From: an uncultured Alphaproteobacteria bacterium
GTDB taxonomy: Bacteria; Pseudomonadota; Alphaproteobacteria; Acetobacterales; Acetobacteraceae
Reading direction: 5' to 3'
Length of the DNA: 64,000 nt
NCBI GenBank assembly: GCA_963804495.1
Contig: CAWDQN010000010.1
Span: 258,265 to 322,264, forward strand
This document shows, piece by piece, positions 10,125 through 23,487 of this stretch; positions within the stretch are counted from its first letter, which is position 1, and each line of letters starts with the position of its first letter. The notes beneath the pieces are model-generated. The model was not told the origin of the DNA and did no database searches. It saw only the letters and a list, made by a program, of their open reading frames with translations. The translations under genes and the position numbers were made by a program.

Positions 10125-10159
10125 CAAGTGTGTCGGCCGCAAGGGGGCCGGTACCAGCT

Positions 10160-10195
10160 TGTCGGAAAGGCGACCGGGTTGTCCCCGACATAACG
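10160..10195 (+). promoter_or_regulatory. NifA-like upstream activator sequence(s)
   Basis: TGTCG-GAAAGG-CGACC (10160-10175) and TGT-N10-ACG (10180-10195), each one mismatch from TGT-N10-ACA, about 110 bp upstream of the -12 element. Confidence 0.5.
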
Positions 10196-10257
10196 ATCCC
10201 CTGTCGGCCGCGCGCGCTGCGGCGCATCACCCTGTTGAAATACGGTCTTTCGTGATG

Positions 10258-10273
10258 TGGCCCGCGCCTTGCT
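10258..10273 (+). promoter_or_regulatory. Sigma54 (-24/-12) promoter
   Basis: TGGCCCGCGCCTTGCT vs consensus TGGCACGRNNNTTGCW; GG and GC separated by exactly 10 nt. Confidence 0.75.
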
Positions 10274-10409
10274 TTGTCCCTGGCGACCAGTGTCGCGAGG
10301 CGGCCTGCCCCGCGACGAGCAGCGAGAATTGCGGCCCGGCGCCCGTGGGAGCGGTCGGGTGCGATGACGCATGGGCGGATCGATCAGGCGCAACGACAGG
10401 AGCACGCCA

Positions 10410-11303
10410 GTGAGCAACGTGACGTTTTCATCCCCCGTGATGGCGAAGGACGTGACCGTTTACGCCGTCGCCGGCGACCGCGGGACCATCCTTGCGGTGG
10501 CCAAGGCGCATAAGATCCCGATCCCGTTCGATTGCCAGGACGGCGAGTGCGGCTCGTGCCTGGTGGAGGTGAAGCATCTTTCCCCGGCGCAGAAATGCGG
10601 CATCGCGCTGACGGAGAAGGAGAAAGAAGTCCTTCGCCAGCTTGGCAAGATCACCAAGCAGGAAATCGAGGACGCCGAAGTCAACGACATGCCGCCGCGC
10701 TACCGGCTGGCCTGCCAGTGTTTCATTCGCAACGAGGACATTCTGGTGTCCTTCGAGGGCGACCAGACCCTGCCGGCCAAGCCGCCATACCTCTCGAAGG
10801 CAGCGAAGATCTTCAAGGGCGGTCTGGAGATCGGCTCGGTAGAGGAATTCTTCGGCTATGCCGTCAAGGTCGAGGAGGATGCGGCGATCCATTTCGACGA
10901 GTTGGCCAGCGCCATGGAGCAGGTCGGCAACCAGGAGGTGGCGAAGCTGTTCGCGCAGCTCGCGGCGTTCTCGCGTTTGCATCTGGCCGAGGCAAAGCGG
11001 CGGGCGGGTTCGATCGATACCACGAAGTATGTTCCGCCCGACTATGTGTGGCCCGACCATGTGACGCCGGAGCGGACGGCGCTATGGGCCGGCGATCCGT
11101 CGCTGTCGCGGCTGGACGCATTGCGGGCGGCGCTGCAGGGCGAGCGCCGGGGGTACGAATTCTACTATTCCGTCTCCGGCACCTCGACCAATGCCGAGAT
11201 CATCGCGGCGGCGAAGGAGTTCGTCGAAGAGGAAGCCGAGCACGTCAAGGTGCTGGAAGCCTGGATCACCCGCGAGGAATGGCAGCGCAAGACGCACGCC
11301 TAA
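10410..11303 (+). CDS. FeSII (Shethna protein II)-like [2Fe-2S] ferredoxin fused to a rubrerythrin/ferritin-like domain
   Basis: N-term FSSPVM..V.AVAG.R.T.L.VA...IP.DCQDGECGSCLV...LTEKE..VL..GK...MPPRYRLACQ...EDILV.F.G matches recalled Azotobacter FeSII sequence; C-term four-helix pattern VEEDA / FSRLH / GERRG / EEEAEH; AGGAG before GTG start. Confidence 0.85.
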   Translation: MSNVTFSSPVMAKDVTVYAVAGDRGTILAVAKAHKIPIPFDCQDGECGSCLVEVKHLSPAQKCGIALTEKEKEVLRQLGKITKQEIEDAEVNDMPPRYRLACQCFIRNEDILVSFEGDQTLPAKPPYLSKAAKIFKGGLEIGSVEEFFGYAVKVEEDAAIHFDELASAMEQVGNQEVAKLFAQLAAFSRLHLAEAKRRAGSIDTTKYVPPDYVWPDHVTPERTALWAGDPSLSRLDALRAALQGERRGYEFYYSVSGTSTNAEIIAAAKEFVEEEAEHVKVLEAWITREEWQRKTHA

Positions 11304-12211: not shown

Positions 12212-13978
12212 TTATTGCGTGAAGTGGGCCGGCGGTGCCAGGGCCAGCTGCAGGAAGGTTTGCAGCGCGGCCTGGATGTGTTTACCGTCATTGGCTTCGA
12301 TGTAGTCGGCGGGAGCCGAGGCGCATTGCTGAAGGTTGTAGGGGATCGAATTGGCAGCGGTCGCTGCCGCCTGGACGATTTCAGCCGCCGGCGGGTTCGG
12401 CGCATCCGTTCCCAGATACCACGTGTTCATGAGCGAATAATAGGGCGTGTAAAGCACATAGATGGCGTAGCCCATGTTCTTGAACGTGGTGCAAGAACTC
12501 GGGTTGAAGGCCGACATGACCCGGCTAGAGGGGTCCTGCAGACCGTCGGTCACGATGATTAGCGCCTTGCGCGGCGCGGAGGCGTTCACGCCATTGCCGG
12601 CCGCGGTCAACTGGCCCGCGAGGTCGCCCATAATGGTCGGGAAGTCGGTTTCGCCGCCATTGGCGCCGACGTATGGCTGGATCCCCTGCTCCGAACCGGA
12701 ATACGGCAGGGTGAGCGAGGGCGGGGTGCCCACGGCGGCCTGTGCGTTCGCCCAGATATTCGGATCGGTCGAGGCGGTCGCGGCACCGCCGCCCGTCGGA
12801 TAGACCGGCGTGAGAATGTCGGCGAACCAGTAGATCCCGAGGCCCAAATTGTTGATCGACAGGTTGTCCTGTTGCATCGACGAAATCAGCATGTTCACGG
12901 CTGATTTGACTAGGTCGAACCGTAGGGTGACCGGGGATGAGGCATTTACTCCGGTCAGTGTGCTTCTTGCCACCGCGAAAAAGTCCTGGCCGGAGCCGGC
13001 CGCGCTGGTGGTGTCGAAATGGCAGGCGAAAGCGCAGGGCGGCCCGGCGCTGACGGGATATCCATTGTATGTGTTTTGCGTGGTCGGCAGCGTCGGGAGC
13101 ACCACCGCGTGGCAGGCAGGCCCCGGGTTATTTCCGGTTACGGGAAAGGCCGGGAAGGATATGCCGTCTGCGGTTAGCGGCCCGATAGGACAGGTATTGG
13201 TTCCGTCACTGACGTAGCTGTAGCCGCTGCCGCTGCAGCCGTAAACGCTGTAGCTCTGTTGCGATACGTCATTTACCGAAGTATTGAAATACTTATAGTT
13301 CGATTGCGTACTAACCAAACTTCCGGACTGGCTCCAGGTGGAGCAGGAGGTACTGCTACTGCCTGCCTTGGTGCAGTAATAAGCGCCGGTGTCCGCGCAG
13401 GCCGTCAGTTCCTGCATAGTCTGGATGTCGCTGGGCAGGGCCGCGATTTCCATCGAGCCGGAATTGTCCAGCAGAACATAGACGTTCAGATAGGGCGCGG
13501 TAACCGGCGTATCCACCACCGAGGTGCTGCAGAGCGGAATGGACGTAATGCCCACCAGTCCACCGAGATACGGGGTATAGGTGGCACAGTACGTGAGCGT
13601 GGCTGTGAAGGCGGTGACGTTGCCGTTCGTCGTGACGGCCGAGACGTTGACGGTGACGGGGAGTTGCACGGTGACGTTGTTGATGGTGCCGGACTGGGCC
13701 GCGAACCGTTGCTGGCCCGCCGGCACGCCGTCGGCGTCGGCGGTTGTGGTGGTGGTTGCGGCGCCGCTTTCCCAGGCTTGTGCCGCCGTGACCGCGGCGG
13801 TCAGTGCGCCCGCATCTGCCGCCAGGTCGAGCTTGGTTTTCGCGGCCGTGATGCCACCGAAATCGATCGCCAGCGCCACGAGCATCATCATCGGCACAAT
13901 GGCCAACCCGTACACCATGGCGGTGGCACCGCGGCGGTCGGTGGTGATTTTCAGAAGCGATGGGCGTTTCAAGGCCAA
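12212..13978 (-). CDS. tadG: TadG-like pilus protein with vWA domain and Cys-rich insertion
   Basis: DRRGATAMVYG prepilin-like site, TM helix, LLDNSGSM MIDAS motif, IIVTDG. Confidence 0.85.
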   Translation of the reverse strand: MALKRPSLLKITTDRRGATAMVYGLAIVPMMMLVALAIDFGGITAAKTKLDLAADAGALTAAVTAAQAWESGAATTTTTADADGVPAGQQRFAAQSGTINNVTVQLPVTVNVSAVTTNGNVTAFTATLTYCATYTPYLGGLVGITSIPLCSTSVVDTPVTAPYLNVYVLLDNSGSMEIAALPSDIQTMQELTACADTGAYYCTKAGSSSTSCSTWSQSGSLVSTQSNYKYFNTSVNDVSQQSYSVYGCSGSGYSYVSDGTNTCPIGPLTADGISFPAFPVTGNNPGPACHAVVLPTLPTTQNTYNGYPVSAGPPCAFACHFDTTSAAGSGQDFFAVARSTLTGVNASSPVTLRFDLVKSAVNMLISSMQQDNLSINNLGLGIYWFADILTPVYPTGGGAATASTDPNIWANAQAAVGTPPSLTLPYSGSEQGIQPYVGANGGETDFPTIMGDLAGQLTAAGNGVNASAPRKALIIVTDGLQDPSSRVMSAFNPSSCTTFKNMGYAIYVLYTPYYSLMNTWYLGTDAPNPPAAEIVQAAATAANSIPYNLQQCASAPADYIEANDGKHIQAALQTFLQLALAPPAHFTQ

Positions 13979-14000
13979 TGTCCTCCGGCGCCGGTTGCGG

Positions 14001-14774
14001 TTACGTTACGTTGTTGTCGGTCGTCGCCGCCGGGTAGCCAGGGCACAGGACGGTGGCGTCGTTCGATCCTGTGATCAAATAATACTGGAACCAATCGGTG
14101 ACCAGACCGATGCGCGGCGAGAAATAGGCAGTCCTAGTCATGACGATGTTGTTCTTGACGTAGCTAAAGAACAGAGGATGGAACGTATAGGTTACGTCGA
14201 CGACCAGAATGGGCTCGGGACTGAAGGCATCGGTTGCCAGCGTGGTCGGCGTGATGTTGGACGCATCGGGAACGGCGGTGAGGGTGCCGCAGGGCCGGAT
14301 TGTCCCCGCCGTTCCCTGGTAGGAGCCGCTCCAGGCAACATTGGCGTTGTAGGTGCAGCCGCTGGTGCAACCGGCCTGGGTCGGCGTCATGACCACTGAT
14401 GTAATGACCACGCCGAACGATGCCGCCGGTGCCGTCAATGTGTCCGGCAGATAGGCATAGATGGCCGATGCGGCCGTCGTTGCGTCGGCCAGGTCGAGAA
14501 TATTGGTGTTTTGCGGGGTCGCCGCCATCGCCGTGGCGATCTGGTCGATGGCCAGCGCCGCCATGTTGACCCGCTGCCAGGCCAGAAAGCCGGTGGTCAG
14601 GTCATACAGGCCGGTGAAGGCCGCGATCAGGAGCGGGGCAATGATGGCGAATTCGAGCGCCGCAAGCCCTTCGCGCGCGCGCAGCAACCGGCTTGCGCGC
14701 TGTCCGGCCAAACGGATGCGGGCCCGAAGATCGCGGAGTGCCGACTTTTTGTCGGGTCCGGCATGGCGTGGCAT
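14001..14774 (-). CDS. TadE/TadF-like pseudopilin
   Basis: REGLAALEFAIIAP G/xxxxEF pseudopilin motif. Confidence 0.85.
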   Translation of the reverse strand: MPRHAGPDKKSALRDLRARIRLAGQRASRLLRAREGLAALEFAIIAPLLIAAFTGLYDLTTGFLAWQRVNMAALAIDQIATAMAATPQNTNILDLADATTAASAIYAYLPDTLTAPAASFGVVITSVVMTPTQAGCTSGCTYNANVAWSGSYQGTAGTIRPCGTLTAVPDASNITPTTLATDAFSPEPILVVDVTYTFHPLFFSYVKNNIVMTRTAYFSPRIGLVTDWFQYYLITGSNDATVLCPGYPAATTDNNVT

Positions 14775-14782
14775 TGGCGCTC

Positions 14783-15259
14783 CTAGAATTCGTTCCGGTA
14801 GGCCGCCGTGCCGACCAGAAACTGCACGTTCAACGGCCAGTTCAGGATGCCTGGGGTGTAGTAGGCCTGCATCAGCACCAGGCTGCCGCTGGTGCCCGGG
14901 TTCACCGTGGGAGTGGGATTTTGTTGGAGCTGCTGGGCGGTGAGCGGCGGGGCTTGGAAATTCTGGACCGGCTGCAGGGTCACCACGATGTTGCCACAGG
15001 GCAGGAAACCAGCGAGGTAATGGCAGAAAAGACTGGATTGGAACGCGGCCTGCGCGGTTCCGCTGGCGATCGATTGTTGTCCGGTCAGCAACTGCCGCGC
15101 CGTTTGCTTGACGGCGTAGTCCAGCGCCGTTTGCGCGTACAGCAGGAAGCCGAGCTGGAACACCAGCATGAGCATGCCAACAAAGGACATGCCGATCAGG
15201 CCGAATTCGATCGCCACGGTTCCGGCCTTCGCCGGTCGCCTGTGCCCCGGCGCGCTCAT
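14783..15259 (-). CDS. tadE: TadE-like pseudopilin
   Basis: KAGTVAIEFGLIG motif, ALDYAVKQTARQLLTG, C-term YRNEF. Confidence 0.88.
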   Translation of the reverse strand: MSAPGHRRPAKAGTVAIEFGLIGMSFVGMLMLVFQLGFLLYAQTALDYAVKQTARQLLTGQQSIASGTAQAAFQSSLFCHYLAGFLPCGNIVVTLQPVQNFQAPPLTAQQLQQNPTPTVNPGTSGSLVLMQAYYTPGILNWPLNVQFLVGTAAYRNEF

Positions 15260-16188
15260 CGCAGGGCGAATGCCTGCACCACCCGCACTCCCGCCGGGCC
15301 GGCGACCACGACGAAAATGCAGGGCAGGATGAACAGGATCATCGGGATGGTCAGCAGCACGGGAATCTTCGCAGCCCTTGCCTCGTAGCGCGTCAGCATC
15401 GTCTGCCGCAGCTCGGCGGCCAGGGTGCGCAGCGCCAGCGTCAGCGGGGTGCCGTATTTCAGGCTTTGCGCCAGCGTGCCGCCAAGGCGGACCATGGATT
15501 CGAGCCCGGTGCGTTTGCCCATATTGACCAGGGCCTGGCGCCGGTCGGCCAGGATCTTCATCTCGTTGGCGGTCACCCGCAGTTCGTTGGCGGTGGCTCT
15601 GGCGCCGTCCTGACCCTCCTCGGCCACCCGCTCCATCCCCGCTTCGAGCGCCAGACCGGCTTCGGCACAGATGATCAGCAGGTCGAGTGCCACCGGCAGG
15701 CCGGCCTCCACAGCCTTGAGGTAACGCGCGCGGATCCGGCGCACGATGACATCCGGCGCCAGCAGCCCGATGATCGCGCTGATCACCATGATCAGCAGGG
15801 GCGAGCTCTGCGAGCCCATGACGGTCAGGAAGATCCAGGCCAGCGCCGGCAGGCCGAAGAACAAAACGATCTTGGCGCCGACGAACAGCGCCAGCGCGGC
15901 GCCGGTGCGCTGGCCGGCGGCTTCCATCGTCTGCTCGAGGTCCTCGATGGCCTTTCGCGAGAGCAGGCCGCTGCGCAGGACGCTGCGGCCGATGCCGCCG
16001 AGCACGCGGGTCCAGGCGGGGAGTGGCTCGGAGGCGATGCCCGTGTCCACGCCCGCAATGTGGCGGACCGACCGGATGCGCGCCTCGGCGCGTTCGGTCC
16101 GTGCGGCGACCAGCAGCAAAAGCATGCCCGCGACCAAGCAGAACAGGGACACTCCCAGCCCCACCTGCCAGGCGGCCACACCGCTCAC
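15256..16188 (-). CDS. tadC: Tad inner-membrane platform protein TadC (T2SS F family)
   Basis: LPVALDLLIICAEAGLALE, QSLKYGTPL, AAKIPVLLTIPMILFILP. Confidence 0.93.
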   Translation of the reverse strand: MSGVAAWQVGLGVSLFCLVAGMLLLLVAARTERAEARIRSVRHIAGVDTGIASEPLPAWTRVLGGIGRSVLRSGLLSRKAIEDLEQTMEAAGQRTGAALALFVGAKIVLFFGLPALAWIFLTVMGSQSSPLLIMVISAIIGLLAPDVIVRRIRARYLKAVEAGLPVALDLLIICAEAGLALEAGMERVAEEGQDGARATANELRVTANEMKILADRRQALVNMGKRTGLESMVRLGGTLAQSLKYGTPLTLALRTLAAELRQTMLTRYEARAAKIPVLLTIPMILFILPCIFVVVAGPAGVRVVQAFALR

Positions 16189-17143
16189 GACACGCTCTTT
16201 TTAATGATCGCGTGCATCGACGCGAATCCCATGGCCAGCAGGAGAATGCCGGCCAACAGGATGTGCTTGCCCATCGTGGTCGTGACCAGCACGGTCAGAT
16301 AGTCGGGGCTGATGATCAGCAGCGCGCCGGCGGCCACGAAGGGCAGGCAGCCCAGCACCCACATGGTCAGGCGTGCCTCCGAGGCCAGCGCGATCGCCCG
16401 CTGCTTCACGGCGACGCGCTTGCGCACGACATCGGCCAGGTTTTCCAGCGTCTCGGCCAGGCTGCCGCCGGACTGGCTTTGCAGCGTCAGCGCCACCGCG
16501 AAGAAACGATATTCGATCAGCGTGCTGCGCCGTGCCAGCCTGGCGATCGCCTCCGGCAGCGAGGCGCCGACCCTGATCTCGTCATTCAGCCGTCGGAACT
16601 CGGCCGAGGTTGGCCACTGGCCCTCCTCGCTGACCACCCGCAGGGCGTCCTGAACGGTAATGCCGGCGCGAACCGAGCGGTTGATCATCGACAGGGCGTC
16701 GGGCAATTGCGTGTAGAGGATGCTGGCACGGCGACTGAGAAAGACCCCGAAGATCGCGCGCGCGATCAGGAACCAGACCACCGGCAGCGTGATCCAGATG
16801 ATCGGGCCGATAAAGAAACTGGCCAGCCCGTCCACCGCGACCGCCACCGCCACGGTCAGGGGCACGATCACCCACCAGGGCATCGGGTAGAGATCGGGTC
16901 GCTCGGTGTCGATGCCCAGGATGGCCAGCACGCGCGCCGACAGGCCTGCCTTGCCCTCGCGCTCTGTCCAAGGGCGGCGCAGGGTGACAACGGGTGCTGA
17001 CGGCGGCGTATAGGCGAGGACGATGTCGGACACCCGCCGGCTGTGGGCGCGCGCCCGCCGGTCCGATACGAACAGCCAGACGCCGCCGGCCGCCAGGGCA
17101 GCGCCCGCGGCCAGCGTCAGCACCAGCGGGTCGAGTCCGGCGC

Positions 17144-17147
<4 letters not shown>
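16185..17147 (-). CDS. tadB: Tad inner-membrane platform protein TadB
   Basis: QLPDALSMINRSVRAG, QSGGSLAETLENLA, ASEARLT; probable TTG start at 17147 overlapping the natural tadA stop; appears fused to tadA in the ORF track. Confidence 0.88.
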
Positions 17148-18553
<1,406 letters not shown>

Positions 18554-18557
<4 letters not shown>

Positions 18558-19699
18558 GCCGGCGCGCGTCGGCGCAAGCCAAGCCAGGACCGCGCCGTCT
18601 CGGTTTTTTGCGGCAGCATTTCACCGGCGAGCCCGGCAATCGCCGTCTGGAACGGGCCGCGCTGGCGGACCGCCGGCTCGCCGAAGGTCTGTGCCGATTT
18701 CATCTGCTTTGGCAGCCAGGGAATGACCACATCCACCTCGCCGCCCAGACCGTCGACGACTTGCTTCTTGGACAGCGAGCCCGGGGCGCCGACATGGTTG
18801 AGCACCACCAGAGGGCGCGACGCCTGTTTTGGCCCGCGCGGCAGGCGGAGATGGCGCAGCGTGTCGCGCAGCGAGGCCAGGGTGGGATCCATCACCAGCA
18901 CCCGCACATGGGTCAGCTCGCGCAACTCGTCGTTGAGCGGCGTCGGGTAGCGCGGCAGATCGACGACGACGAAATTGAATCGGTTGCACAGGATCGAGGT
19001 GAGGTGAGGGATCGCGCCCTCAACGGCGGCGACCGGGGCATCGAGCGGTTCCTCGGCGGCGAGCAGGTGCAACCGGTCGCTGATCGCCGGCGAGGAGCGC
19101 TCGGCAAACAGCACGTCGACGCGCCCCGGGTTTTCCAGCGCCGCTCGCAGGCCGCCACCGGCGGTCGCGGAGAGCATCAGGGCGGTGGTGCCGGTGTGCA
19201 GGTCGGCATCGAACAGCAGGATGTGGTGGCGCGAGCGATCGGCGAGCTGGGCCGCCAGGTTGACCGCGACCGTGGTGGCGCCGACGCCGCCGCGTACCCC
19301 GGTGACGGTGACGATGCGCCCGCCGCGGGCGGGCGCGGGGCTGTTGCCGGTCAGCGTGGGCACCAGGCTGCGGGCGATGATCTCGCGATTGAGCGGTTTG
19401 TAGAGATACTCCTGCACCCCCAGGCCGCGAACGACCTGGCGATAGAACCCCACGTCCTGGACCTCGCCGATGACGAAGACCCGCACGCCCGGCTCGACGT
19501 AGAAGGAGAGGTCGTCGAGCGCGCCGAGCGGATCGCTCTCGCCGGAAACATCGACCAGAAGGGCGGCGATCGGGGTGGTGAGACGCTGCAGCCCGGCGCG
19601 CGCCTGGGCGATGCCGCCGGCACGGAATTCGGCGGTTGGCCCCAAAACCGGGGCGAGGACATCAGTCAGGATGGCGAGAAGTCTCACGGTCGCGGGCAT
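18554..19699 (-). CDS. cpaE: CpaE/TadZ receiver-like + ParA/MinD-like protein
   Basis: Degenerate Walker A GVRGGVGATT, DADLHTG, VVVDLP; N-terminal receiver-like region. Confidence 0.9.
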
Positions 19700-19777
19700 A
19701 GGCAATCAGCGGCAGCCGTGCCGCGCGGCCGGTTTCATCCGGGACGGGGCCCGGCTGAAGCAGCGGCTCGCTGGTCA

Positions 19778-20098
19778 TTATTGGGTCTCCGCCGCGGCCG
19801 CGCCAGATGACGGGGTGGCCGGGATGGGGCCGACGCTCGGCGTGGTCAGCGGTTTGACATGGTCGGTCAGCAACCGGTGCACCGCTGCCGCCGACAGCGC
19901 GCCGGGGCTGCCCTCATCGCCGACGCCCTGCACGAGATGCTGCTGGTCGGCCACCGAGGCAGCCAGGTTGGCGTCGTTGACATTCTCCGCCCGCCATGTT
20001 CCCGGGCGCTGGAACGGATCATCCCAGCCAGCGCAGCCTGCCGCTCCGAGCAGGAGGGCGAGGCAGGCGCATCGCCGGAAGTCTCGTGCGAGCGGCAT
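19778..20098 (-). CDS. Small pilus lipoprotein (CpaD/RcpB-like position)
   Basis: Lipobox LLLGAAGC; between secretin and cpaE. Confidence 0.7.
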   Translation of the reverse strand: MPLARDFRRCACLALLLGAAGCAGWDDPFQRPGTWRAENVNDANLAASVADQQHLVQGVGDEGSPGALSAAAVHRLLTDHVKPLTTPSVGPIPATPSSGAAAAETQ

Positions 20099-20122
20099 GG
20101 CGAATGTTCCCTTTTGGTTCAT

Positions 20123-22597
20123 TCAGTGCAGGATGAAACCGGCACCGACGGGCACGTCGTTCGGACCGAGGCGGCCGCCCGGTCCCAGGGCGGCGGCGGT
20201 CGGCGCGACGACCGTGCCCGGGCCGGTGCCCATTGCCCGTTGGCGGTTGAACAGCACCCGGTCCACGTCGGCGGCCGGAACGAAACCGTCGGTCGGCAAG
20301 CGGAGCTGGCTGGGCGAACCCACCGGGTTAACGATGTACGGGGTCACCACGATCACCAGTTCATCCTGGTCGCGTTTGTAGAGATCGGACTTGAACAGGG
20401 CGCCCAGCACGGGAATCTCGCCGGCGTAGGGAACTGCCCGCGAGTTCATGCTGTTGTCCGAGTCCAACAGGCCGGCGATGGCGAAGCTCTGTCCTGACCC
20501 GAGTTCCACCGTGGTATCGGCTCGGCGCACGGTGAGCGCCGGAATGGTGACGGTGGAGGTGCCGCCGAGGATGCTGTAGCCGATCGGCACCGACACCGCG
20601 CCGGTGGTGGTCAGTTCGCTGACCTCGGGGTGCACATGCAGGCTGATTCGGCCATCCGACAACACCGTTGGCACGAAGGCCAGCGAGATGCCGTACTGCT
20701 TGAACGCCACGGTGATGGTGCTGGTGCCGCCGTTGCCCGAGCCGGCGACCGGGATCGGGAATTCGCCGCCGGCGAGGAAACTGGCGGTCTCGCCGCTGCG
20801 GGCGGTGAGGTTCGGCTCGGCCAGCAAGGTGATGAGCTGATCCTGGGCGAGCAGATCGAGCACGGTATTGATCGAGCTGGTGCCGTCGTTGAAACCGGCG
20901 CCAATGGTGTTCGGCGGGTTGGCCCCCGAGCCAAGACCATCGATGATGGCGGCGGCCACGTTCCAGTGGCCGAAATTGGCCAGTGCCGTCCAGTTAATGC
21001 CGAGCTGGCGGGTGATCTGGCGCGAGATTTCGGCGATCCGGACCCGCAGGGTGACCTGGACGGAGGAGGGGATGGTGGTCCGATTGTCGATCGTTGCTTT
21101 GTCGCCGGCATAGGAGCGCGCGGTTGCGACCACCTGATGGGCGGCGGCCGGGTTGGCGACCTGCCCGCCCACCAGCAGCCCATCGGGCGTGGCTGAGAAC
21201 TGCACGTTGGCGCCCGGCACCGCGCGCTGCACCGACGCGGCCGCCTCGCTGGCGGCGTACGAGGACGGCTGGACCACGACATCGTATTGCGCGAGCGTGT
21301 TGCCGGCCTCGTCGAGGGCGGCAACGGTGCTGTGCCCGGGTCCCAGGCCGAAGACGAAAATCGTATTATGACTGGCCGGCCGGACCTCGACGACTTTCGG
21401 ATCGGCGGCAAACAGGCTGGCGATGGTGCCCCGGATGCGCAGGACACGCCCGGTGCCGACCTCGATCACGGTGGACCGGGGAGCGGCATCGAAGGGGACC
21501 GGGCTGGGCGCGGCGGACGCGGTGCCGGAACCGGGCGCCGCGCCGGCGGCGCCGGTGCCCGGGGTGGCAGCGGTGGTGGCCGGGGCCGAACGCGGCGGGG
21601 TGCCGGTTACGACCAGACCGCCGCCGGGCGCTGCCGTTGCTGCTCCGACAGCGTCAGGTGCTGCAGGCGTGGTGGCTGCGGCAACCAAGTCCGGCGTAGC
21701 GGTCGAGGGGACGATGGTTGCTGGCAGAGTTGTTGTTGTTGCCAGGGTCGTTGGTGCCAGGGTCGTTGGCGACAGGGTCGTTGGCGACTGGGGGGGCGGC
21801 GGCAGGGGAGCGGTCGCGGCGGTTGCCACGACGGTCGGGGGGGCAGCGTTCGCCGGGACATAAGGAACTGTCGCGGTGGGCGAGACATACGGAGCCGCGG
21901 CGCTTGCCGAAACGGTGGCAGGCGCGGCGGCTTCCGTCACGTGGTCCGGGGTGGCGGTGGCCGGGCCTCGATCGGGCGCAGCGGCGGTCGCAATGCGCTC
22001 AGGCGCGGGGACAGAGGGGGCGGGCCCGGGATCTGCGGCGGCTGCGCCGACAGGATCGAGCACATCGAGCAGCAGCCGGTTGCCCAGCCGCCCCGGCCGC
22101 ACCTGCACGCCTGGAACCAGCGACAACTCGGCCGCACCCGCGGCGACGGTCAGCGCCCGCACATTGCGTGGCGGCTTCGCCCCGGCCAGCGGGTCGGCAC
22201 CGGAAAATCGCACGGTGAGCCGGTCGCCGGCACGGTCCATGGTCCATGTCGCCCCCGGGGGAAGGTCGAAGACCACCCGCCCGTAACCAGGGTGGTCGCC
22301 GGTGCGCACCAGCGCGGTTGGTACGGCTCCCGCGGCGGATTGGGCCGCAGGCTGCCCGCTGCCGCGGGTGGCGACCGGCGGCTGCGACGCTGGCGCGAGA
22401 GACGCTGGCGCGAGAGACGCTGGCGCGAGAGACGCTGGCGCGAGAGACGGGGGCACAAGGGACGTGGGCGCGAGGGCAGAGGCGGCGGTGACTGCCGGGG
22501 CCGGGCTCGGCGGCGTTATGTCCGCATGGGCCGGGCGAATCCCCGGGGCGAATGCCAGCAGAACGGCGGCCAGAAGTGCCGGGGAGGTCGGTGCCAT
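20123..22597 (-). CDS. cpaC: CpaC/RcpA secretin with long N-terminal extension
   Basis: ADPKVVEV pil_N domain, VTLRVRIAE, LAEPNLTARSGETASFLAGGEFPIP, KQYGISL.F.P, IPVLGALFKS, ELVIVVTP. Confidence 0.93.
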   Translation of the reverse strand: MAPTSPALLAAVLLAFAPGIRPAHADITPPSPAPAVTAASALAPTSLVPPSLAPASLAPASLAPASLAPASQPPVATRGSGQPAAQSAAGAVPTALVRTGDHPGYGRVVFDLPPGATWTMDRAGDRLTVRFSGADPLAGAKPPRNVRALTVAAGAAELSLVPGVQVRPGRLGNRLLLDVLDPVGAAAADPGPAPSVPAPERIATAAAPDRGPATATPDHVTEAAAPATVSASAAAPYVSPTATVPYVPANAAPPTVVATAATAPLPPPPQSPTTLSPTTLAPTTLATTTTLPATIVPSTATPDLVAAATTPAAPDAVGAATAAPGGGLVVTGTPPRSAPATTAATPGTGAAGAAPGSGTASAAPSPVPFDAAPRSTVIEVGTGRVLRIRGTIASLFAADPKVVEVRPASHNTIFVFGLGPGHSTVAALDEAGNTLAQYDVVVQPSSYAASEAAASVQRAVPGANVQFSATPDGLLVGGQVANPAAAHQVVATARSYAGDKATIDNRTTIPSSVQVTLRVRIAEISRQITRQLGINWTALANFGHWNVAAAIIDGLGSGANPPNTIGAGFNDGTSSINTVLDLLAQDQLITLLAEPNLTARSGETASFLAGGEFPIPVAGSGNGGTSTITVAFKQYGISLAFVPTVLSDGRISLHVHPEVSELTTTGAVSVPIGYSILGGTSTVTIPALTVRRADTTVELGSGQSFAIAGLLDSDNSMNSRAVPYAGEIPVLGALFKSDLYKRDQDELVIVVTPYIVNPVGSPSQLRLPTDGFVPAADVDRVLFNRQRAMGTGPGTVVAPTAAALGPGGRLGPNDVPVGAGFILH
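21741..21785 (-). repeat. Three 15-bp in-frame tandem units encoding PTTL(S/A)
   Basis: G(C/A)CAGGGTCGTTGG(T/C) x3 inside cpaC. Confidence 0.85.
22386..22445 (-). repeat. Four perfect 15-bp in-frame tandem units encoding SLAPA
   Basis: GACGCTGGCGCGAGA x4 inside cpaC. Confidence 0.95.
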
Positions 22598-23487
22598 CAG
22601 AACTTGACCTCTTCAACGTCCTTGGCCCCGTGGTGCACCCGGATGGTGGTCGCGGCCTTGCCGCCGGTGCGGTCGCGCAGGGCGGGGGACACGTCACCGC
22701 TCCAGGCAATCGGGGCCGACTCGGGCGGTGTCGGCGCGGTGCTCGCGTCATTATCCGTCGCTGGCTGGTCGTCGGCCGCCGAGCGCACGACGAGGGCCAG
22801 CCGCCCCAGCCGGGTGGCGATGGCGATGCGCGCGGCGTCGTAGGAGCTCGCTTCGAGGGTGACGGTGCGGTTGGTGTTGCCGGCGGCTCCCGGGTTCGCC
22901 TGCGCGCCCTGGCCGCCCTGGACGAGTTGCTGATCGACCGCGATCACCCGGAGGTTGGTCAACACGGTTTCGCCGGAGATGCGGCGGTCGATCGGCTGGT
23001 CCTTGTCGTCCATCGACTGCGTCAGAAGCAGATCGACACGGTCGCCCGGCCAGATCAGCCCGGCGGTGCCGCTGACCGAGTCGACGCCGACGGTCACGGC
23101 CCGCATGCCGGTGCCGAGCACCGCGGCGAGGAACCCTCGGTCACCAGGCGACAGGACATCGCCGGCCACGATCGGCTCATTGGGGTTGAGGCTGCGGCAA
23201 ATCATGGCGCCGCGCAGGGCCGTGCGGGCCGCGATACTGTCCGGATAGCTGCCCGGCACCGGTTTCGTGGCATCGACATCCGCCGCGGTGACATCTTCCA
23301 TCACCATCAGGTTGCCGGCGCGCAGGGCGCGCGCGGCGACCAGAATATGCATCCTCGGAACCGGCGGCGGCGGCGGCGGGGCAACAACCTCTTGCACCGG
23401 TGCGGGTCTTTGGGATGCGATCAGGGCAATGGCAATGCCACAGAGTCCCACGAGACCAAGCAGTACGGCCATGACTCGGAGGAACAT
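22597..23487 (-). CDS. cpaB: Flp pilus assembly protein CpaB/RcpC
   Basis: N-term TM, SAF-like VAARALRAG, GMRAVTVGVDSVSGTAGLIWPGDRVD, VIAVDQ. Confidence 0.93.
   Translation of the reverse strand: MFLRVMAVLLGLVGLCGIAIALIASQRPAPVQEVVAPPPPPPVPRMHILVAARALRAGNLMVMEDVTAADVDATKPVPGSYPDSIAARTALRGAMICRSLNPNEPIVAGDVLSPGDRGFLAAVLGTGMRAVTVGVDSVSGTAGLIWPGDRVDLLLTQSMDDKDQPIDRRISGETVLTNLRVIAVDQQLVQGGQGAQANPGAAGNTNRTVTLEASSYDAARIAIATRLGRLALVVRSAADDQPATDNDASTAPTPPESAPIAWSGDVSPALRDRTGGKAATTIRVHHGAKDVEEVKF

Follow-up and report, generated by a model that had tools for sequence, protein, structure and literature searches.

A fusion of an FeSII-type ferredoxin with a ferritin-like domain, a probable accessory protein of nitrogen fixation

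To our knowledge, FeSII (Shethna protein II) is the sole protein known to lock nitrogenase reversibly in an oxygen-tolerant state, and it has so far been viewed as a small Azotobacter ferredoxin that stands alone. Rubrerythrins and reverse rubrerythrins, i.e., di-iron peroxidases or O2 reductases with a rubredoxin domain, are a second kind of system to be considered, and the rubrerythrin RbrA has a protective role in cyanobacterial heterocysts. The gene described here lies at positions 10410–11303 (+) of a 64,000-nucleotide (nt) stretch of DNA, hereafter the window, from an uncultured member of the Acetobacteraceae (Alphaproteobacteria; assembly GCA_963804495.1, contig CAWDQN010000010.1, positions 258,265 to 322,264), and encodes in one polypeptide of 297 amino acids (aa) an FeSII-type [2Fe–2S] ferredoxin domain followed by a ferritin-like domain. 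The fusion protein is very likely an accessory of nitrogen fixation, and the odds favour, by a smaller measure, a role in oxygen protection. Neither the fusion nor a ferritin-like partner of FeSII is mentioned in the literature searched, which included structural and review papers on FeSII, and a prior description is possible.

FeSII is a homodimer that associates with the nitrogenase components, in an O2-dependent manner, to a ternary complex. It carries an N-loop insertion with two helices, hN1 (residues 69–78) and hN2 (residues 84–91), which is not present in other ferredoxins, and its redox switch consists of the salt bridges D44–K70 and E71–R99 (Franke et al. 2025, PMC11754109). The contacts to the Fe protein are made by R72, N73, K76, E41 and E118, with R72 and K76 of hN1 forming salt bridges to NifH in Azotobacter, and those to the MoFe protein by K63 (to NifD) and R24. 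In the Azotobacter complex, the free carboxylate at the C-terminus (A122) lies right over the NifH [4Fe–4S] cluster, and R92 is the latch that holds the partner protomer's C-terminal carboxylate when FeSII is reduced (PMC11754109). According to the same paper, it is unknown whether more components take part in the release of the complex, and FeSII is discussed there as a tool for nitrogenase expression in crops.

An earlier note on this DNA, made from the letters alone, had proposed an FeSII-like N-terminal domain, and this assignment was borne out by PDB alignment, homolog conservation, AlphaFold2 (AF2), Foldseek and a phylogenetic tree. In a sequence search of the PDB, residues 3–118 aligned without a gap to residues 3–118 of A. 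vinelandii FeSII (5FFI, 8RHO, 9CU0-2; E 4.4e-35, about 50–55% identity), and A. beijerinckii FeSII aligned equally well. The best Foldseek match (9cu1_N, TMt 0.78) was the FeSII chain of the locked complex with nitrogenase, followed by other FeSII chains, and the AF2 model places helices at residues 69–78 and 83–91, i.e., at the positions of hN1 and hN2. The mean pLDDT of this model is 69.6, with about 85–90 in the C-terminal domain and poor values in the N-terminal domain and the linker, because the alignment is shallow. Pfam detected Fer2 at residues 17–75 (40.6 bits, cut-off 21), and NCBIfam offered no model for either half, giving only weak sub-threshold ferredoxin matches. A generic ferredoxin was considered and rejected, as the NCBIfam matches (BenC, YfaE and plant ferredoxin) were sub-threshold and both the PDB sequence search and the fold search led to FeSII. 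The domain boundaries thus drawn are residues 1–118 for the ferredoxin domain (10410–10763), residues 119–143 for a conserved linker (10764–10838) with nearly invariant T120, P122 and G137–G138 and low pLDDT, and residues 144–297 for the ferritin-like four-helix bundle (10839–11300), the latter supported by Pfam, a PDB match, AF2 and Foldseek.

The same architecture was found by a word-indexed search in more than 1000 proteins of 285–310 aa, in which the linker is conserved, and the fusion is therefore not an assembly artefact. These proteins bear at most the database names '2Fe-2S cluster-binding protein' or 'rubrerythrin/ferredoxin'. The family is unusually conserved, as an exhaustive search at the level of 50%-identity representatives yielded essentially two clusters of full-length members. 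Against the nearest relatives (dS 0.4–0.6), dN/dS is 0.04–0.08 for the gene and about 0 for the N-terminal domain; the fusion gene is intact and under strong purifying selection.

The residue roles described for FeSII (PMC11754109) were compared across 112 fusion homologs and 19 stand-alone relatives. The segments quoted in the earlier note are real: FSSP, AVAG.R.T, CQDGECGSC, LTEKE..L..GK and MPP.YRLACQ are nearly invariant in the 112 homologs. The cluster ligands C42, C47, C50 and C102 are invariant, as are, at the sequence level, the switch residues D44, K70, E71 and R99, and the N-loop (residues 59–99) is ungapped relative to FeSII. R24 is also invariant, and most of the positions contacting the Fe protein are conservatively occupied, with basic K72 and R76 on hN1 (R72 and K76 in Azotobacter) and acidic D41 and D118, whereas the change of N73 to E is non-conservative. 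Further changes in the fusions are K53 to E, an extra Cys at position 104, and R92 to N in 108 of the 112; position 63 (K63 in Azotobacter) is variable, being C, Y, H or S, and is C in the protein from the window. Fusion and FeSII (A. vinelandii and A. beijerinckii; 5FFI, 8RHO, 9CU0-2, 9IEY) thus share the fold, the cysteines, the N-loop, the switch pairs and the linkage to nifH and nif genes. They differ in length (297 vs. 122 aa) and in the C-terminal tail: stand-alone relatives, including a paralog in this genome, mostly end in ...FTGEPGGA, and where FeSII has its tail ...EPGGA, the fusion has the linker and a 154-residue domain.

This difference bears on how the fusion may be classified and on how it might act. 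FeSII has a free C-terminus and the R92 latch, and the fusion has neither; since the free tail is missing, the fusion is treated here as a variant built on the FeSII domain and is not filed as an FeSII. It cannot act exactly like FeSII, and any complex with nitrogenase must differ from that of Azotobacter because the C-terminal tail is not free. The crosslinking of nitrogenase in the Azotobacter manner, on which the earlier note had drawn, can therefore not be assumed, as the fusion lacks both R92, the latch, and the free tail that covers the NifH cluster.

Maximum-likelihood analysis placed the N-terminal domains of the fusions in one clade (support 100/99), the internal branches of which are very short and which lies within the stand-alone FeSII-type ferredoxins of Alphaproteobacteria. 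A clustering with generic plant-type or FdxN ferredoxins, which would have spoken against the FeSII assignment, was not observed. The single clade points to a fusion that arose once.

The C-terminal half had been described in the earlier note as a rubrerythrin/ferritin-like domain with a four-helix di-iron pattern, and this description holds in part. The AF2 model has four helices (residues 144–171, 175–199, 234–258 and 262–295) and the domain is ferritin-like; however, compared with the canonical ligand set E, ExxH, E, ExxH of rubrerythrins, helix B carries S188-x-x-H191 in place of ExxH, with E155, E245 and E275-x-x-H278 present, and the name rubrerythrin is too specific. Pfam reports Rubrerythrin from residue 146 with 30 bits (cut-off 22.8), whereas the nearest relative is 2OH3, an uncharacterised COG1633 protein of Magnetospirillum magnetotacticum deposited as a structural-genomics entry, which matches residues 144–288 (E 5e-17) and is also the best Foldseek match of the domain (TMt 0.75). 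It is followed by a more distant relative, 1VJX (TM1526), and ferritins, bacterioferritins and Dps-like proteins match weakly (TMt 0.5–0.65). The similarity to rubrerythrins and reverse rubrerythrins lies in the joining of a ferritin-like bundle to a small FeS electron-transfer domain and in a Pfam score above the cut-off; the differences are that the FeS partner is a [2Fe–2S] FeSII-type ferredoxin, that the first ExxH is absent, and that the similarity is marginal. No rubredoxin-type Fe(Cys)4 domain was detected by Pfam or NCBIfam, and no CxxC pairs occur outside the ferredoxin domain. Because of the missing rubredoxin domain and the helix B without ExxH, the protein is not a rubrerythrin sensu stricto.

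An alignment of 112 fused domains, 17 downstream paralogs, 32 diverse stand-alone representatives and 2OH3 was used to locate conserved positions in this domain. The invariant or near-invariant residues are F147, A151, E155, M169, F181, H191, W214, P220, E221, L238, A241, E245, Y252, A268, F271, E274, E275, H278, V279, L282 and W285. Among them, the candidate ligands of a di-metal site are E155, H191, E221 (or E194), E245, E275 (E274) and H278; fused, downstream and stand-alone members alike have invariant E155, H191, E221, E245, E274/E275 and H278, and Y252 is invariant too. With two His and four Glu, the candidate set has the usual count of a di-metal carboxylate site in an unusual layout, in which the Glu lacking from helix B may be supplied by P220–E221, where a short crossover helix begins, or by E194. 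The same features (E155, S188-x-x-H191, W214, P220–E221, E245, Y252 and E274–E275-x-x-H278) are found in 2OH3, which, unlike the domain described here, stands alone and is not fused behind a ferredoxin.

A relative is encoded at 305 loci in species-representative genomes, and the counts over 80 loci given below refer to the best 80 of these 305. The carriers among these best 80 are Rhodopila, Methylocystis, Methylocapsa, Rhodomicrobium, Rhodoplanes, Rhodopseudomonas, Rhodoblastus, photosynthetic Bradyrhizobium, Telmatospirillum and Azospirillaceae as well as some metagenome-assembled genomes (MAGs) of Terriglobia and Eremiobacterota, and many of them come from bogs and wet soils. The mapped distribution is almost solely one of nitrogen-fixing bacteria: nifH was found in 47 of 50 fusion-bearing genomes (45 above the curated cut-off, and two with nifH cut by contig ends). 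A predominance of carriers that lack nitrogenase, which the earlier note had named as speaking against its reading, was not observed. As a control, an even sample of 401 alphaproteobacterial species, nine with and 392 without nifH, was searched. An FeSII-type domain, fused or free, occurs in 7/9 genomes with nifH, in five of the seven nifH-bearing genera, vs. 0/392 genomes without nifH (Fisher 1e-13). Close relatives of the ferritin-like domain (at least 36% identity) occur in 9/9 vs. 1/392 genomes, and more distant members of the ferritin-like family are found in non-diazotrophs as well.

Three narrower associations were considered and set aside. A general link to alternative nitrogenases is not indicated, as only 13 of the 50 fusion genomes carry an AnfG/VnfG gene. 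A link to photosynthesis does not fit the non-phototrophic Methylocystis and Methylocapsa, which carry the fusion too. The fusion is also not a trait of the whole order of the host, since the only carrier among 251 sampled genomes is the present one; the distribution is thus patchy, and it was probably shaped by transfer together with nif genes. In Terriglobia MAGs (loci L077, L086 and L090) and Vulcanimicrobiaceae/Ca. Velthaea MAGs (loci L041 and L059), the fusions are 71–78% identical to alphaproteobacterial ones; these MAGs have nifH, and the fusion lies in nif or fix clusters. This suggests for Acidobacteriota and Eremiobacterota either a transfer of nif genes together with the accessory gene or mis-binned MAGs. 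Methylocapsa palsarum NE2 has two copies of the fusion on different scaffolds (L054 and L063).

The neighbourhood of the gene in other genomes points in the same direction as its distribution. In four Rhodopila genomes, the fusion follows on the same strand a yqeB-like gene and a gene for the nitrogenase-associated protein TIGR01616, the end of which overlaps the start of the fusion by 8 nt, and nifV lies downstream; directly upstream on the opposite strand are nifA, nifB, fdxN, a gene for an LRV protein, nifT, nifH and nifD. In Terriglobia MAGs the fusion adjoins nifA and nifB, and in Eremiobacterota MAGs nifS, nifV, fixA, fixB, fixC, fixX, the fusion and a stand-alone ferritin-like gene follow one another on one strand. 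Overall, nif or fix genes lie within 10 kb of the fusion at 18/80 loci, some loci have suf, nifS or nifU genes as neighbours, and at 51/80 loci a stand-alone paralog of the C-terminal domain (43–53% identical) is found 50–320 bp downstream on the same strand.

The region upstream of the gene suggests control of the nif type. A sigma-54 type −24/−12 promoter element, TGGCCCGCGCCTTGCT (GG-N10-GC), is located at 10258–10273 (+) and is invariant in the four nearest relatives, in which the conserved blocks of a candidate enhancer region at 10131–10207 (+), with TGTCGG half-sites at 10131, 10160 and 10202, are invariant as well. Within this region, TGTCGGAAAGGCGACC at 10160–10175 (TGT-N10-ACC), 98 bp upstream of the promoter, is a predicted site one base off the NifA consensus TGT-N10-ACA. 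A TGG-N9-TGC element within 400 nt upstream was found at 63/80 loci vs. 9.5% of random 400-nt windows, and the canonical TGT-N10-ACA at 38/80 loci vs. 4.8% of random windows, commonly about 100 bp 5′ of the promoter; the loci without both elements include some with the gene inside a nif or fix operon. The genome of the window encodes a NifA-like protein (contig C2) and, beside its vnf genes, a VnfA-like second sigma-54 activator. The open reading frame itself spans 10371–11303 (+), and the GTG at 10410, a start shared with relatives, was taken as the start codon on account of the spacing to a Shine–Dalgarno AGGAG (10398–10402, + strand, 7 nt 5′ of the GTG, within the block GACAGGAGCACGCCAGTG kept in relatives) and of the homolog N-termini, which read M(S/A)NVTFSSP; the stop codon is at 11301–11303, and the limits that the earlier note gave for the gene are exact.

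The two halves of the protein also occur as neighbouring genes. Methylocella silvestris BL2 and Xanthobacter autotrophicus have the module in split form, as a gene for a 121–122-aa FeSII-type ferredoxin and, 80–165 bp further on, a 158–163-aa Rubrerythrin-domain gene, in the same order and on one strand. These pairs, which are annotated just as ferredoxin and rubrerythrin-domain proteins, consist of the same two protein families as the fusion; unlike the fusion, they give two separate polypeptides, with a short tail (PAGA or PAEA) left free at the C-terminus of the ferredoxin. At two loci (G285:C1:689046-689861 and G281:C1:464390-465208) both reading frames lie in one frame with a single TGA between them, and the products are 51–53% identical to the fusion over residues 2–288; they may be intermediates between the split and the fused state, or cases of read-through or of sequencing. 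In about a dozen fusion genomes, a split pair or a free FeSII is present as well, often at a distance of a few kb from nifH. A different FeSII gene, with a product 83% identical to the Azotobacter protein, adjoins nifHDK, draT and a SIR2-like gene, and every contig found ends just past it. The FeSII-type ferredoxin and the ferritin-like protein are a conserved two-part module, and the occurrence of both fused and adjacent split genes implies, by the Rosetta-stone argument, that the two halves act together.

The window contains no nif genes within its 64,000 nt, in agreement with the earlier note, and the nitrogenase genes of the host were found elsewhere in an assembly that is 92% complete. 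The check for nifHDK that the note had called for gave a divided answer: a V-nitrogenase cluster is present, and neither Mo nifDK nor a nifB radical-SAM core was found in this assembly. The cluster, at C12:76672-89260 (locus L015), contains vnfH (444 bits), vnfG (above cut-off), vnfK (855 bits), nifE, nifN, a nifX-like gene and vnfD, and an ArsC-like nitrogenase-associated protein is encoded beside vnfH. vnfD is split over two frames at model position 221/222, near C12:86230, where the junction CAGCAG[G]TAC[C]TGGGAC has, by eye, two extra bases relative to the VnfD model reading. The +2 frameshift may be real or may stem from an error of the assembly.

These results are best accounted for if the protein is an accessory of the nif regulon that combines an FeSII-type switch with a di-metal domain reacting with O2 or H2O2, the two being redox-coupled, and the probability of this combined mechanism is put at roughly 0.5. 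O2 or H2O2 entering the cell would react at the putative di-metal centre of the C-terminal domain. The centre would then draw electrons from the N-terminal [2Fe–2S] cluster, either intramolecularly or between the protomers of a dimer, in analogy to the use that rubrerythrins make of their rubredoxin domain, and the oxidant would be consumed. The same step would oxidise the FeSII-type domain and thereby couple the redox state of the switch to the oxidant load. A coupling to the sensing of O2 or peroxide, as suggested in the earlier note, would be a reasonable hypothesis. The oxidised D44–K70/E71–R99 switch might then free the N-loop, allowing hN1, with K72 and R76, to dock on the Fe protein, and any such docking must have a geometry other than that of Azotobacter FeSII. 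The protein would thus probably be a second kind of oxygen guard for nitrogenase. A bolder version, in which the ferritin-like protein is the missing FeSII partner that senses O2 or H2O2, sets the redox state of the cluster and controls both formation and release of the protective complex, is put forward tentatively and is rather unlikely in full; sensor and switch would here be one polypeptide, with a geometry at the Fe protein unlike that of Azotobacter, possibly serving V-nitrogenase.

Several points weigh against such a mechanism. The replacement of ExxH by SxxH in helix B means that a di-iron site, as predicted from the ligand pattern, is not assured. The free C-terminal carboxylate (A122) of the Azotobacter binding mode is absent, and the sequence has N at position 92, E at 53 and 73 and a variable residue at 63. 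AF2 confidence for the N-terminal domain and the linker is low in the model (mean pLDDT as given above). The gene is not near nif genes in this genome, the assembly of which, at 92% completeness, shows a V-nitrogenase cluster alone, its vnfD bearing a +2 frameshift, and no Mo nifDK or nifB core; the predicted upstream site in the window ends in ACC, not ACA; and nifH is absent in 3 of the 50 fusion genomes.

The strongest alternative, which is possible but considered improbable, is a pure scavenger analogous to a reverse rubrerythrin, in which the [2Fe–2S] domain passes electrons from FixABCX, ferredoxin or flavodoxin to a di-metal centre reducing O2 or H2O2, without any binding to nitrogenase. 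The order of an FeS domain followed by a ferritin-like domain would parallel that of rubrerythrins, and the loss of the C-terminal tail and of R92 removes parts of the FeSII–NifH lock. The gene of the Eremiobacterota MAGs stands in a one-strand run, read as co-transcribed, with fixABCX, an electron supplier, and a second ferritin-like gene is often found downstream of the fusion. However, all 112 homologs share an invariant N-loop, switch and set of basic hN1 residues, and dN/dS of the N-terminal domain is about 0, a constraint exceeding that usual for a simple electron shuttle. In addition, the 2OH3 family has no known peroxidase or oxidase activity, and helix B lacks ExxH.

Far less probable is the canonical conformational protection by FeSII, with the ferritin-like domain serving as an oligomerisation or scaffold module without redox chemistry. 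The closeness of the N-terminal domain to FeSII in sequence and predicted fold, the retention of R24, D41, D44, K70, E71, K72, R76, R99 and D118, and the strong nif linkage would all fit such a role. Yet a passive scaffold would have no need of eight invariant ligand-like positions (E155, H191, E221, E245, Y252, E274, E275 and H278), and the fusion lacks the free C-terminus on which the Azotobacter mechanism hinges.

A role in iron handling is given still slightly less weight. Bfd reduces and releases the iron of bacterioferritin, and by analogy the ferritin-like domain might store or donate iron for the assembly or repair of nitrogenase clusters while the [2Fe–2S] domain reduces and releases it. 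In favour of this idea, the fold has a weak likeness to that of ferritins, bacterioferritins and Dps-like proteins, and suf, nifS or nifU genes are neighbours at some loci; against it, the nearest kin (2OH3 and 1VJX) are small bundle proteins with no sign of a cage-forming ferritin, and the choice of an FeSII type of ferredoxin with its N-loop would be left unexplained.

Least credible of all is a relic gene, or one recruited to a role outside nitrogenase, in a genome that is perhaps losing diazotrophy: although it lies among housekeeping and pilus genes, vnfD is frameshifted, and the assembly, 92% complete, yielded neither a nifB core nor Mo nifDK, the gene itself is intact, with every ligand kept and a low dN/dS (0.04–0.08 at dS 0.4–0.6), its sigma-54 promoter and upstream repeats are conserved, vnfH, vnfG, vnfK, nifEN and the NifA-like and VnfA-like genes are present, a nif cluster may be missing from the incomplete assembly, and the frameshift may be a sequencing error.

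If the preferred reading of a redox-coupled di-metal domain and FeSII-type switch holds, the family would be a concrete candidate for two questions raised by the structural papers, namely the route by which the FeSII cluster loses and regains electrons in vivo and the possible involvement of additional components. FeSII-type domains are present in most of the sampled alphaproteobacterial diazotrophs and travel with a specific ferritin-like protein with predicted di-metal sites, and in a large, extremely conserved family both domains form one polypeptide under what appears to be nif-type control. This may offer a second, perhaps self-contained, oxygen-guard design for engineering.

The genome of the window contains a second FeSII-type ferredoxin, a stand-alone protein of 122 aa encoded at C14:121848-122213 (−) (L014:13848-14213), which is 52–54% identical to the N-terminal domain of the fusion and keeps both R92 and the ...FTGEPGGA tail. 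Its gene lies in a photosynthesis cluster directly after bchE and bchJ, with bchX, crtD and puf genes nearby, and the order bchE–bchJ–ferredoxin recurs in Rhodovastum atsumiense. To judge by this position, it could serve O2-sensitive nitrogenase-like or radical-SAM enzymes of bacteriochlorophyll synthesis. The idea that FeSII-type ferredoxins act as donors to di-iron enzymes in this phototroph was dropped, as the neighbour of this ferredoxin gene, bchE, encodes a radical-SAM enzyme (NCBIfam).

A third NifH-like gene, at C15:159122-159925 (+), scores 371 bits with the nifH model, which is below the cut-off and well above BchL/BchX, and is followed by weak NifD/K-like genes; similar genes of 370–404 bits are present in several fusion-bearing genomes. 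It may belong to a nitrogenase-like (NFL) system, e.g., of the methylthio-alkane reductase type.

In the window itself, the fusion gene is surrounded by genes for an amidase, an FMN-binding protein, a carbonic anhydrase, a peptide deformylase, a COQ9-like protein, a transglutaminase-like protein and a lytic transglycosylase and by Tad pilus genes. The latter form a run of the Tad/Flp pilus type at 12212–23487 (−), unconnected with the fusion, in which Pfam identified a TadE/G-like, Ser/Thr-rich protein of 588 aa and a TadE-like protein, the rest having been assigned by eye.

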